A stretch of 64,000 nucleotides of DNA from Patescibacteria group bacterium (GCA_043822345.1 JBDRBW010000008.1:2332-66331); one strand, 5' to 3'; positions 14,048 to 63,616 are shown, counted from the first letter of the stretch. Notes: generated from the letters alone by a model not told the origin. Numbers and translations: made by a program.

Positions 14048-14105
14048 GTCATTCTGAGCTTTGCGAAGAATCTTTAAAAGATCCTTCACTTACATTCAGG
14101 ATGAC
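14048..14105. repeat. Family-1 palindromic intergenic element (gtcattctgag ... gaagaatctttaaaagatccttc ... ttcaggatgac)
   Basis: It has outer inverted repeats plus a central palindrome, and lies immediately upstream of the RBS of the 14122 gene. Confidence 0.7.
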
Positions 14106-14121
14106 TTTCAAAAGGAGGTGA

Positions 14122-14868
14122 ATGATGAAAAACTTTTTGCGATTTTTGCTAGTAATCGCGGTCGCCGCCTCGCTAGGCGGTGGTTGGTGGCTAATAGAAC
14201 AGGATAAGGTTGAGAAACAGCAAGCCAGCGTGGAAAATGAAGTCGACCGTTATGAAAAACTAGTGAATCAACTCTATAGTCAATTGTCGCAAGCAAACCA
14301 ACTGGATAATTTACAGCTAATAGAGCAGAGTATCAAGCAGTTGAAAAAAGAAGACGAAAGGGAATTGAGGCCGCAACTGGATTTGGCTTTCGCCGAGTAC
14401 TATTTTCAAGAAGCGGAAGATAACATTTTCCGCGCCCGTTCTATCATAGAAGCCACCGGCGAGTCAGCAGAAAAAGACGGCGTCAATGTAATCGCCGACC
14501 AATATATTAATCGGGCCTTTGATTATTATCGCCAAGCTAAAGAGAAGATTGATGCTCTGCCGGAAATAGTGGGAAATGACGGTTACAACTTTCACCTCTA
14601 TTATACCAAGGGCAACATCTATTTTCGTTATCTTTTGCTGATGGCTCAGCGTGAAGAGGCGCTGGAAATTTTCAACCAAACCGCCCAATCGTGGGGAACG
14701 GCATTGCGCTTTAAGGAAAAAGATCTTGATACGGAAATGAATTTGGAGATGCTTAATATTAAAAAACAACAGGCGTTGCAAAACGCCAGCCATGGCCAAC
14801 GTCAGCGGGTAAAACTTTTGCCTCAACAGCCCAACAAGAGCAGGGGAGGCAATCATGGAGTTATTTAG
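14122..14868 (+). CDS. Membrane-anchored helical-repeat (TPR-like) protein, BatC-like by operon context
   Basis: N-terminal TM, then alpha-helical repeats. Lies between two vWA genes. Confidence 0.4.
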   Translation: MMKNFLRFLLVIAVAASLGGGWWLIEQDKVEKQQASVENEVDRYEKLVNQLYSQLSQANQLDNLQLIEQSIKQLKKEDERELRPQLDLAFAEYYFQEAEDNIFRARSIIEATGESAEKDGVNVIADQYINRAFDYYRQAKEKIDALPEIVGNDGYNFHLYYTKGNIYFRYLLLMAQREEALEIFNQTAQSWGTALRFKEKDLDTEMNLEMLNIKKQQALQNASHGQRQRVKLLPQQPNKSRGGNHGVI

Positions 14869-15928
14869 CATCCATCAGCCGATTTGGCTCTATCTGCTTT
14901 GGGCAATACCGGTGTTTTTACTAGTATTCGCTCTTTCTTGCCGAAAGTTTTATCTGTTTGACAAGCAACTGTCGCAAAAACCTTATCTCTACCAAAGAAA
15001 ATTACCGCCTTGGCGCCATCGTATTGCCAAGGCGTTGTTTTATGTTCTGGGTATGGCGATGGTGGTCGTGGCTTTAGCCGATCCCCATTATCAGAAAATG
15101 GTGCCCGAAAACATCTATAAAGGCGTGCGCATCTATTTTCTTTTTGATGTCTCCCGCTCAATGGTGATGGGTGAGGATGTTAGGCCCAGTCGAATGGCGG
15201 CCGCCAAAGAGGAAATTAGGGTTGCCTACGACCGCTTCGGCGGCGCCTATGAGGTGGCGCTTATTCCTTTTGCCGATGAAGCCAATGCTTATTACCATCC
15301 GCCGTCGTTTGATGTCCAAAACTTTTATATTGCCCTCAACGAACTGGACGAAGACACCATATCTTTGCCGGGCACTAATTTGGTGAATGCTTTTGGAGCG
15401 CTTAACCAACTAGTGGCCGATTTCGGCCTGCGTCCGGATACGGTTAATATCGTTGTTCTGCTGTCTGATGGCGGTAAAGAGAAATGGGCGTCCGCTGACC
15501 ATTTTGCTCTGCAAAAAGAAATAGACGAACTATTGAAAGCCGAGGGCCGATTCGTTATCTACGCCGTTGGTGTTGGCGGCAATCAACCGACCCCGATGGT
15601 CATCAGGGATCAGGGTGGTAATTTTGTCGGCTACCTGCGTGATGATGATACTGGACAGATTTACACATCTCAACTTGACGAAGAAACACTCAAGCTCGTT
15701 GCTCGCCGCGGCGGCGGTGAATACCAACGCTTTGAAAAGCAAGGTGAACTAAGCGCTATGCTTCAAAAAGTAATAGAAGAAAACAGCCAACTGCTGAATG
15801 TTACCTATTACCACCAAGACCAGCCGATCCGTCTCTGGTTCTTCCTCGCCGGCACTTTGATATTTTTATTTGGAGAGACATCTTTTTTAACAATAAAGAG
15901 AAAACAATATAACAATTTAACAATATAG
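14855..15928 (+). CDS. vWA-domain membrane protein (BatB-like)
   Basis: FLFDVSRSMV MIDAS motif, N-terminal and C-terminal TMs. Confidence 0.7.
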   Translation: MELFSIHQPIWLYLLWAIPVFLLVFALSCRKFYLFDKQLSQKPYLYQRKLPPWRHRIAKALFYVLGMAMVVVALADPHYQKMVPENIYKGVRIYFLFDVSRSMVMGEDVRPSRMAAAKEEIRVAYDRFGGAYEVALIPFADEANAYYHPPSFDVQNFYIALNELDEDTISLPGTNLVNAFGALNQLVADFGLRPDTVNIVVLLSDGGKEKWASADHFALQKEIDELLKAEGRFVIYAVGVGGNQPTPMVIRDQGGNFVGYLRDDDTGQIYTSQLDEETLKLVARRGGGEYQRFEKQGELSAMLQKVIEENSQLLNVTYYHQDQPIRLWFFLAGTLIFLFGETSFLTIKRKQYNNLTI

Positions 15929-15936
15929 AAATTAAA

Positions 15937-15966
15937 AAATCTCTGACAAGGTCAGAGATTTTTTCT
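15937..15966 (+). terminator. Intrinsic terminator at the end of the Bat-like operon
   Basis: Reads aatctctgac-aag-gtcagagatt followed by TTTTTT. Confidence 0.6.
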
Positions 15967-62665: not shown

Positions 62666-62744
62666 AATTTTAGATAGTATAACATATCTGTTCTGGTTGC
62701 GAAATTTGACTAATTAAGTATTTTGGTATTTACTTAAGATACTT

Positions 62745-62957
62745 ATGGTGCCAGTAAAACATCATACTCACAGCAAAGTCGGCCGGCGGCGGTCGCATCT
62801 AGCTCTTAAAAAAGTTGCTATTTTGGTTTGTCCGCAATGCAAAGGACCCATTGTTCCCCACAGAGCATGTAATCAATGTGGCGCTTATGGAAAGAAGCAA
62901 AGAGCAACTACTGCTACGCGAGTTGAAAAATCTAAAACAACAAAAACTAAAATCTAA
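62745..62957 (+). CDS. rpmF: 50S ribosomal protein L32 with a C-terminal extension
   Basis: HHTHSKVGRRRSHLALK...CPQCKG...HRACNQCGAY zinc-ribbon L32 signature. Confidence 0.7.
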   Translation: MVPVKHHTHSKVGRRRSHLALKKVAILVCPQCKGPIVPHRACNQCGAYGKKQRATTATRVEKSKTTKTKI

Positions 62958-63067
62958 ATACAAACTAAAACTATAAAAACTAAAAATATTTTTAGATGTT
63001 TGAAATTTTAGATTCTGTATTTTATTTAGACTTTGTAATTTTAGTTTTTAGATTTTAACGTTATTGT

Positions 63068-63580
63068 ATGGCTACTAGACAATTAGGCAGATCGGTAGTT
63101 CTTCAGTCATTGTACGAGTGGGATTTTGGCGGACAAAAGGGGGATTTAACCAAGATTATAGAGCGTAATTTGGAGGAGTTCGCGCCGGGGATGGATGAGC
63201 CGGAATTTGTCTGGAAATTAGCCACCGGCGTTATTAAAAAAATAAAGGAATTGGATGCTATTATTGAAAAAGCGGCGCCCGAGTGGCCATTAGCGCAGGT
63301 GGCAATTATTGATCGCAATGCTCTGCGTATCGGCCTTTATGAGCTATTATACGCCGATCCCGAAGAGGTGCCGCCTAAAGTGGCTATTAATGAGGCGATT
63401 GACATTGCCAAAAACTACGGTGGTCCTAACTCTGGCAAATTTATCAACGGCGTCTTAGGAACGGTCTATAAACAAATTGGCGACCGTGAACCCACCTCCG
63501 GTCATAAGCAGGTAGGCGACCGTGAACCCACCCCCGGTCATTCCGAGCGGAGCCCGACCGCGTGCCGCCTAAAGCTTTAG
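63068..63580 (+). CDS. nusB: Transcription antitermination factor NusB, with a C-terminal tail encoded by a 36-bp tandem repeat and a family-1 element
   Basis: LQSLYEWDF..., ...[15 protein letters not shown]..., [14 protein letters not shown]. The tail [24 protein letters not shown] comes from the repeats at 63470-63541. Confidence 0.8.
63470..63541. repeat. 2 x 36-bp tandem repeat at the nusB 3' end
   Basis: Reads aaacaaattggcgaccgtgaacccacctccggtcat / aagcaggtaggcgaccgtgaacccacccccggtcat. Confidence 0.7.
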
Positions 63581-63616
63581 CGGTGGAGCAAGGGCGAAGT
63601 CGAGGAATCTCATAAA
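63536..63616. repeat. Family-1 variant element providing the nusB stop codon and abutting the rnc start
   Basis: Reads gtcattccgagcggagcccgaccgcgtgccgcctaaagctttagcggtggagcaagggcgaagtcgaggaatctcataaac. Confidence 0.5.

Follow-up and report, generated by a model that had tools for sequence, protein, structure and literature searches.

Palindromic repeats at the gene junctions of a Patescibacteria genome belong to a described class of hairpins and are probably linked to an Ssn-type GIY-YIG nuclease

A 64,000-nucleotide stretch of a Patescibacteria group bacterium (GCA_043822345.1, JBDRBW010000008.1:2332-66331), part of a metagenome-assembled genome (MAG) and analysed here as a whole (the window), carries many copies of a short palindromic repeat at its gene junctions. 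We found that these repeats belong to a described class and are not a new kind of element. Their unit anatomy, covariation, linkage to a nuclease gene and insertion sites indicate that they are probably hairpins of the CGTC-tagged repetitive extragenic palindromic (REP) or Ssn-related motif (SRM) class, mostly arranged as inverted doublets with the tags outward and linked to the small nuclease Ssn. An original prediction had described them as a genome-specific, mobile or regulatory family resembling MITEs (miniature transposable elements with inverted repeats); they instead correspond largely to a known annotated element of defined function (the CGTC-REP/SRM class; PMC3733652, PMC11893778).

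Compared with shuffled sequence as the chance baseline, the window was strongly enriched in every form of the repeat. The 23-nt central palindrome gave 13 strand-matches at 7 loci and none in the shuffles, the terminal 11-mer 19 matches against 1.14, and strict units (GTCAT-NNN-GA..GA-N'N'N'-ATC with exactly complementary triplets) 21 against 0.17, while a relaxed unit finder returned 31 units against 1.48. All of the 15 positions first listed hold an element or a remnant of one, so that the claim of at least 15 copies held, as did that of a real, abundant and modular palindromic family lying far above chance and packed at gene junctions. The positions 40940, 41891, 52266, 57708, 57781 and 63537 proved to be single or decayed units rather than doublets. 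The first listing had missed a cluster at 26296-26471, a unit at 26781-26815, the GIY-YIG gene between them and a minus-strand unit at 45972-46027. The full tally is 10 inverted doublets and about 8 single or decayed units.

The repeated entity is a hairpin unit of about 25 nt, GTC-AT-YYY-GA-(loop)-GA-RRR-AT-CT. In its minimal form (GTC, ATYYY, GA, G-loop-C, GA, RRRAT, CT) the stem has five Watson-Crick pairs, followed by a tandem G·A/A·G mismatch and then a single closing pair, G-C in units of the left type but A-T in those of the right type; this G·A type can be written as the search pattern GTCATYYYGAGN{3,60}CGARRRATC. The loops range from 3 to about 55 nt, and some carry nested GC hairpins. 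A full element is made of two inverted units with the GTC tags outward, their tails usually joined by TTWAAA, a junction replaced by a 27-29 nt spacer in the doublets at 24496 and 38428. Doublet orientation in the window was uniform, with 10 tags-outside (head-to-head), no tail-to-tail and no head-to-tail arrangements. The central palindrome that had been called constant is therefore simply the junction of two unit tails, found in 7-8 doublets. The optional GC sub-hairpins are indeed modules, three or four recurring ones (H1, H2 and H3 being named) seated in the unit loop, but they do not occur in either orientation as first reported: each keeps one orientation relative to its own unit, and they therefore seem inverted on the plus strand. 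The doublets and single units are as follows, with pyrimidine triplets given as left/right.

14048 to 14105: doublet D1, left TCT, right CCT, with minimal loops, 2 nt past the upstream stop and 16 nt before an ATG
17163 to 17286: doublet D2, between two minus-strand HtrA-like genes, loop modules H2 on the left and H3 on the right
22887 to 22966: doublet D3, after pilM, module H1 in the left loop
23534 to 23628: doublet D4, TCT/CCC, before a pilO-like gene, module H3 in the left loop
24496 to 24575: doublet D5, TTC/CTC, with a 29-nt spacer, before pilB
38428 to 38537: doublet D6, TTC/CCT, module H2 in the right unit, preceded by a normal terminator (38352-38378)
39625 to 39706: doublet D7, CCT/TCT, between pilT and pilC, module H1
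45157 to 45236: doublet D8, TCT/TCT, the sole homodimer, before pheS, module H1
46346 to 46426: doublet D9, CCT/TCT, between pheS and pheT, module H1
53091 to 53148: doublet D10, CCT/TCT, its left unit head holding the tmk stop
40940 to 40975, plus strand: single unit CCT, before a pilin gene
41891 to 41934, plus strand: single unit CTT, in frame within pilD
45972 to 46027, minus strand: single unit TCT, in frame within pheS
52266 to 52290, plus strand: single unit GTCATTCTGGACTTGATCCGGGATC, a CCCGGA-subfamily member that has two G·T pairs
57708 to 57740, plus strand: decayed unit (head GTT, not GTC), overlapping the 5' end of the minus-strand thrS
57781 to 57801, plus strand: truncated unit, 3' half only, CTTGTCGAGAAATCTCAT, identical in D5 and D6
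63537 to 63609, plus strand: single unit TCC with a long loop, at the end of nusB

A possible further decayed unit, CGTCATTGCGAACGACCGAAGGGAGTGTGGCAATCT, was noticed on the minus strand inside pheT (46667-46700).

The hairpin was evident from covariation. Across the 21 strict units G2, T3, C4 and C26 were invariant, the GTCAT head being part of the search pattern, although this head had also been listed independently in the original prediction; the base before GTC was C in 9, T in 6, A in 3 and G in 3 units, and the first stem pairs, A-T and T-A, did not vary. When each 5' motif was joined to the nearest 3' motif with no requirement of complementarity, complementary triplets of 7 types were found in 21/21 pairs, compared with a mean of 5.9 and a maximum of 13 for shuffled partners (10,000 trials). 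Pair counting showed 98.3% of cells paired, with both-side changes in four of the six pairs (24 cells); none of 500 shuffles reached the observed value and slid registers fell to 16-65% paired. All these counts are inflated by identical units inherited through copying; the independent events number about 6. Nine of the 10 doublets are heterodimers, for example with a TCT left unit and a CCT right one. What is conserved is therefore the unit hairpin and not the long palindrome, since such triplets leave the long hairpin mismatched, whereas each unit hairpin is perfect. Perfect 8-bp stems were confined to the units near the ssn-like gene described below and to the unit at 52266.

This anatomy places the repeats beside two described groups. 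CGTC-tagged REPs have a CGTC or TGTC tag, a stem of 8-9 bp opening with A-T and T-A, a loop of 4-5 nt and a short tail; they form mostly tags-outside dimers, often heterodimers, frequently beside stop codons and with in-frame intragenic copies, include Rickettsia RPE-4 and RPE-6 as well as Neisseria dRS3, and were reported from five other phyla with no associated enzyme identified (PMC3733652). The window units share the (C/T)GTC end tag, the A-T/T-A first pairs, the short unpaired tail, the head-to-head heterodimers, the proximity of copies to upstream stops and the in-frame position of some intragenic ones. They differ in their loops (3 to about 55 nt as against 4-5 nt) and, for the abundant units, in a stem of 5 bp, mismatch and 1 bp instead of a perfect 8-9 bp. 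The second group is the Ssn system of Neisseria. According to Chenal et al. 2025 (PMC11893778), the sequence NTS (CGTCATTCCCGCGMAVGCGGGAATCYRG) and related Ssn-related motifs flank ssnA, a 94-aa GIY-YIG gene; SsnA, whose catalytic residues are Y6, Y17 and E64 and whose relatives belong to the CDD family cd10448, binds the hairpin as single-stranded DNA (ssDNA) only, cuts a few nucleotides upstream and does not bind RNA. The same paper describes the C after the palindrome as crucial for binding, the 3 nt before the palindrome as crucial for cutting and the NTS loop as removable, replaceable or extendable with cleavage kept, and it states that the Ssn system lowers transformation by NTS-bearing DNA and that symbionts are over-represented among the genomes holding more than 300 motifs. 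The invariant GTC and C of the window units are the positions that govern cleavage and binding by Neisseria SsnA, and the modular loops of the window fit the tolerance of SsnA to loop replacement or extension. Further features in common with the SRM/Ssn system are the AT-starting stem, the hairpin length of 20-50 nt, the many copies and the probable symbiont host. Unlike SRMs, the abundant window units combine a 5-bp stem and tandem G·A mismatch with loops of up to about 55 nt and nested GC hairpins; their host is a Patescibacteria MAG.

The other part of the Ssn system is also present in the window, where a small nuclease gene stands between pilB and the next gene in the following arrangement.

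26296 to 26385, plus strand: tandem array of five identical 18-nt head-plus-5'-arm copies (ATAGTGTCATCCCGCACT), leading into a complete unit
26373 to 26397, plus strand: perfect-stem unit GTCATCCCGCACTTGATGCGGGATC, holding the window's only site of the published SRM pattern
26434 to 26471, plus strand: perfect-stem unit containing an inner hairpin, its end lying 7 nt ahead of the GIY-YIG ATG
26479 to 26769, plus strand: ssn-like gene, encoding a 96-aa single-domain GIY-YIG nuclease
26781 to 26815, minus strand: inverted unit (GTCGTCCCGGA..TCCGGGATC), beginning 11 nt past the GIY-YIG stop

The protein matches the Pfam GIY-YIG family (E = 2.5e-14); a search of PDB gave no match and no NCBIfam model was found for it. 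The units at 26434-26471 (plus) and 26781-26815 (minus) complete a unit-gene-unit bracket of the repeat-ssn-repeat kind, and the former folds as ssDNA at -14.6 kcal/mol (z = -5.7). To the same effect, a survey of 80 metagenome loci encoding proteins 61-77% identical to the ssn-like protein gave a density of 7.0 GTCAT..ATC units per kb up to 200 bp from the gene, compared with 0.52 per kb beyond. After removal of nested hits, a plus-strand unit was present within 80 bp upstream in 54/75 loci (closest 9 nt before the match, half within 17 nt) and a minus-strand unit within 80 bp past the stop in 47/75 (closest 3 nt, half within 9 nt), and 40 of the 70 loci having both flanks were bracketed on both. 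The exact Neisseria NTS core occurred within 300 bp of the gene in 27/80 homolog loci, and Y7, Y18 and E65, invariant in 21 homologs, match Y6, Y17 and E64 of SsnA. From these two findings the window gene is probably an ssn homolog in its typical bracket.

Several further observations were made on this gene. The ssn-like protein shares 70-82% identity with proteins annotated as Omnitrophota, Kiritimatiellae, Campylobacterota and Wolfebacteria, much more than this genome's housekeeping proteins share with any others; for its PheS, no relative exceeds 61%. Many ssn-like homologs sit on contigs of 0.5-1.5 kb; this contrast and the short contigs suggest recent cross-phylum transfer, assembly breaks at the repeats, or both. 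Head-plus-5'-arm tandem arrays like that of the window, whose five copies are 100% identical, adjoin ssn in 18/80 homolog loci (L019, L023, L025, L032, L034, L045, L049, L051, L052, L058, L059, L065, L073, L076, L083, L085, L089 and L090), with a period of 16-35 nt across loci, and run outward from a complete unit. They may be the footprint of repeat cutting and copying, and they are not mentioned in the excerpted text of Chenal et al. 2025 (PMC11893778).

A question raised by these findings is whether the abundant G·A subfamily belongs to the same system, and a number of results weigh against it. None of the approximately 25 abundant G·A-type units fits the published SRM pattern, HGTCWYN(0-2)YYVSBRHN(0-5)WNVSBRGN(0-2)RNCYNB, which matched the window once (26372-26400; 0.12 in shuffles); the abundant subfamily thus escapes the published search. 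The ssn flanks in the window are perfect-stem CCCGCA/CCCGGA units and not of the abundant YCTGAG type, and no ssn-like open reading frame (ORF) was found in the 1.1 Mb made up by the IMG/VR loci with G·A units, among the matches listed. Moreover, SsnA was inactive when the palindrome sequence was changed with the structure kept (PMC11893778), and cross-recognition of G·A units can therefore not be assumed. On minimum-energy folding, the doublets are predicted to adopt the long hairpin and not two unit hairpins, and a lone G·A-type unit as DNA reached -1.6 kcal/mol (z = +0.9), that is, almost no predicted stability. Sheared G·A pairs are poorly handled by nearest-neighbour models, and the stability of the lone unit may therefore be understated; the two-unit reading was retained despite the folding because of the covariation and the heterodimers.

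The G·A doublets could form a separate family that resembles SRMs and is recognised or mobilised by a protein other than the window ssn homolog, such as a second Ssn paralog, the other small GIY-YIG protein of the window, a RAYT-type transposase or some other enzyme. We consider this unlikely, although it draws on the failed match to the SRM pattern, on the dependence of Ssn specificity on palindrome sequence (PMC11893778), on the position of the G·A-type units, which never directly flank ssn in the window or in 79/80 homolog loci, and on the presence of a second GIY-YIG gene at 18843-19088. That gene is flanked by an unrelated direct repeat, and no gene was recurrently bracketed by G·A-type units at the 120 IMG/VR loci, among the matches listed. 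Nor was a RAYT, Y1_Tnp or other transposase domain found among the window ORFs scanned against Pfam or NCBIfam, a scan that left out several ORFs, including those of 1236 and 1424 aa. Furthermore, the GTC head, AT stem start, pyrimidine triplet, C tail and head-to-head dimers are common to the G·A-type and the ssn-flanking units. At one homolog locus (L068) ssn is directly flanked by units of similar internal mismatch (GAG..CGTG), and at another (L082) ssn with perfect-stem flanks has G·A-type doublets 1-2 kb away, the same combination as in the window. On the Ssn-linked reading that we prefer, the window Ssn or a paralog would act on the abundant subfamily.

The G·A-type unit pattern occurs in at least 120 IMG/VR contigs, including TCT/CCT heterodimer doublets, so that the repeats are not genome-specific as had been supposed. 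Among the IMG/VR matches listed, there were 221 units and 20 tags-outside doublets (14/20 heterodimers), with 4 tags-inside and 2 tandem arrangements. The exact central junction palindrome was not found in multiple copies in other GTDB species-representative genomes; scans of GTDB species genomes with the exact 58-mer and the central palindrome gave nothing, or merely isolated chance palindromes, 12 in all, from genomes that are unrelated. The Di Nocera 2013 supplements contained no peptides that G·A-type units would encode, and a literature search by sequence brought up primers only. What is new here is the tandem G·A mismatch with long modular loops, the host from the candidate phyla radiation (CPR) and the in-frame units in pheS and pilD. 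It is conceivable, if somewhat doubtful, that the G·A long-loop doublets represent an unrecognised cross-phylum branch of the Ssn type with a GIY-YIG specificity of its own, in which case the tandem arrays would be footprints of copying, through nicking by Ssn 5' of GTC and subsequent slippage or re-priming at the hairpin. If true, the arrays would offer an initial way into the multiplication of CGTC-type REPs, an open problem since 2013.

A similar comparison was made with other palindromic repeats. Like the Rickettsia RPEs, the window repeats include in-frame palindromes in conserved protein genes that remain intact (pheS, pilD and the nusB tail); unlike them, most window copies are intergenic, RPE-1 is longer and different in sequence, and among the RPEs the CGTC type is limited to RPE-4 and RPE-6. 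With the REPIN-RAYT system and the bacterial interspersed mosaic elements (BIMEs) of E. coli they share inverted doublets of REP hairpins, a bracketed single-copy partner gene and a hairpin recognised as ssDNA, but the window tag is GTC instead of GTAG, and the partner is a GIY-YIG nuclease instead of an HUH/Y1 transposase. Coxiella QMITE1 and QMITE2 were rejected as candidates; they are 150-400 bp long, hold an integration host factor (IHF) site or a GTAG REP and are unrelated in sequence, and the window comes from a Patescibacteria MAG.

These results also bear on classical MITEs, that is, deletion derivatives of insertion sequences mobilised through terminal inverted repeats, an origin suggested by the 11-nt outer inverted repeats and the small size of the elements. 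When target-site duplications were looked for, none of the 10 doublets had a direct duplication of at least 3 nt at its flanks; single units stand alone, and conservation and covariation lie within each half and not between the two ends, that is, at the level of the single hairpin. In addition, no related insertion sequence or transposase was found among the window ORFs scanned, and QMITE1 and QMITE2 offer no parallel in length or sequence. A MITE origin is thus extremely improbable; of the mobile element first proposed, probable mobility stands.

The original prediction had further suggested that the elements serve as terminator or promoter insulators. An effect on RNA, whether by terminating or insulating transcription or by stabilising operon transcripts, is in keeping with their position in transcribed intergenic spacers, ending 8-22 nt before start codons, and with published abstracts according to which REPs of other bacteria can affect 3' untranslated regions. 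However, no element fits a terminator pattern and none has a T-run; a scan of 38000-54000 for terminators and promoters flagged none of the elements but did list ordinary hairpin-plus-T-run terminators, and such terminators stand separately, as at 38352-38378. Copies also lie within the essential operon pheS-pheT and within coding sequence, and SsnA does not bind RNA (PMC11893778). The 7 canonical doublets (GAG-type unit left, GAA-type right) share one plus-strand orientation, including D2, which lies between minus-strand genes; GC skew is positive across most of the window, and both fit a replication-linked strand bias rather than transcription, though the sample is small. At the gathering threshold, Rfam returned tRNAs only and no family for the elements, while a permissive scan gave only U6atac (E = 0.035; 21 bits against a gathering threshold of 33), which was taken as chance. 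Overall, we regard action at the RNA level as very unlikely.

If the repeats are Ssn-linked, they could work in the following way, with the biochemical steps taken from the literature. Whenever DNA becomes single-stranded, in replication, repair or uptake, a unit would fold into its hairpin, which Ssn (a GIY-YIG protein of about 95 aa) would bind as ssDNA only and nick a few nucleotides 5' of GTC. As to the mode of spread, we infer that the repeats multiplied through the genome by a process probably acting on ssDNA, and that copies persisted where they are tolerated, namely in gaps between stop codon and ribosome-binding site and in in-frame surface loops. The likely effect would be to mark ssDNA, such as incoming transforming DNA, for cutting by Ssn and so to modulate recombination. 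We infer this link of the window repeats to transformation; the window contains a full type IV pilus set as well as a ComFC-like gene, and Saccharibacteria, another CPR lineage, are naturally competent (PMC10187176, abstract).

The neighbours of the elements are pilM, a pilO-like gene, pilB, pilT, pilC, a pilin gene and pilD, together with pheS, pheT, tmk, a NUDIX gene, thrS, nusB, VWA genes and HtrA-like genes, and operon spacers are almost wholly filled by elements. Six doublets begin 2-14 nt past the upstream stop and one more overlaps a stop, while 8 end 8-22 nt ahead of the next start codon. Most of the reported contributions to coding sequence were confirmed: the tmk stop (TGA, 53098-53100) sits in the left unit head of D10, the final 14 codons of nusB with its TAG (63578-63580) lie in the unit 63537-63609, and the pilD unit encodes VILSGTSVASGVERSH in a variable loop, lacking in 4 of the closest homologs. 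Likewise, residues about 9-19 of ThrRS overlap the decayed unit at 57708, thrS being the minus-strand gene 55950-57764; the gene at 46422 is pheT and not that for ThrRS. For PilT, the ORF upstream of the ATG at 38533, where an element had been proposed to supply N-terminal codons, is probably non-coding, because the family profile begins at ORF residue 57; the terminal ATGAC of D6 provides this in-frame ATG. The pheS unit (45972-46027) forms an insert of 16-17 aa (ANAPADAKAKAGRQNDKSG) that is missing from 9/10 aligned homologs, while in the tenth (P0037) that site holds an unrelated insert of shorter length. The next relatives of the window PheS (Harrisonbacteria, Wolfebacteria and Paceibacterota) are only about 60% identical. 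Elsewhere inside pheS, a GC hairpin resembling loop module H3 (46103-46141) encodes MPARNASRNDAGGAG where most PheS homologs hold a four-cysteine knuckle (C..C...C..C), and a loop module may thus have replaced a zinc-binding motif.

Taken in this way, the dense anonymous repeats of a tiny CPR genome fall into a system of known biochemistry, in which Ssn cuts hairpin-marked ssDNA. As the published motif definition misses a widespread mismatch subfamily, surveys of SRM abundance and lineages are likely underestimates. The host probably depends on DNA uptake, and repeats that mark ssDNA could shape recombination in the neighbourhood of housekeeping and pilus genes. With in-frame copies in PheS and PilD, the Rickettsia phenomenon of "palindromes inside proteins" reaches into the CPR, and Ssn/SRM variants may serve as new specificities for single-strand DNA tools.

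Other features of the window were noted in passing. The second small GIY-YIG gene (18843-19088) encodes 81 aa, 39% identical to the ssn-like protein, and adjoins tRNA-Ser(tga) at 19105-19187. Four direct double-hairpin repeats of about 60 nt (CTTGCCACCGCCTTCGGCGGGGTCCCGCTTACCTT...AGTAAGCGGGAAAA), unlike the GTCAT units, surround it (18708-19405), and a duplicated tRNA 3' half lies at about 19270-19325, and the region has the appearance of a nuclease cassette that has integrated at a tRNA gene. The ends of the tRNA-Ser, together with about 15 nt of each flank, are spanned by a perfect inverted repeat of 22 nt (19090-19111, 19179-19200), far exceeding the length of an acceptor stem, and a ParE-type toxin gene is nearby (19596-19931). 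The ComFC-like protein (20890-21627, minus strand), which adjoins the pilus cluster, has a double zinc ribbon and a phosphoribosyltransferase domain. AT-rich 8-nt tandem arrays, often inverted pairs (ATTGCTAT / AACAATAT, CACAAAAA, TGTTTTCG, ACGAAAAC), stand between genes at 2873-2983, 15903-15933, 21664-21765, 43356-43382, 43920-43953, 50955-50987 and 62927-63057 and could be regulatory. Finally, several long perfect palindromes (34-46 nt) that have no relation to the GTCAT family occur at 6081-6114, 7546-7581, 20822-20860, 21249-21291 and 44435-44480, the last of them some 130 nt upstream of a sigma-70-like promoter match (12/12; 44608-44636).

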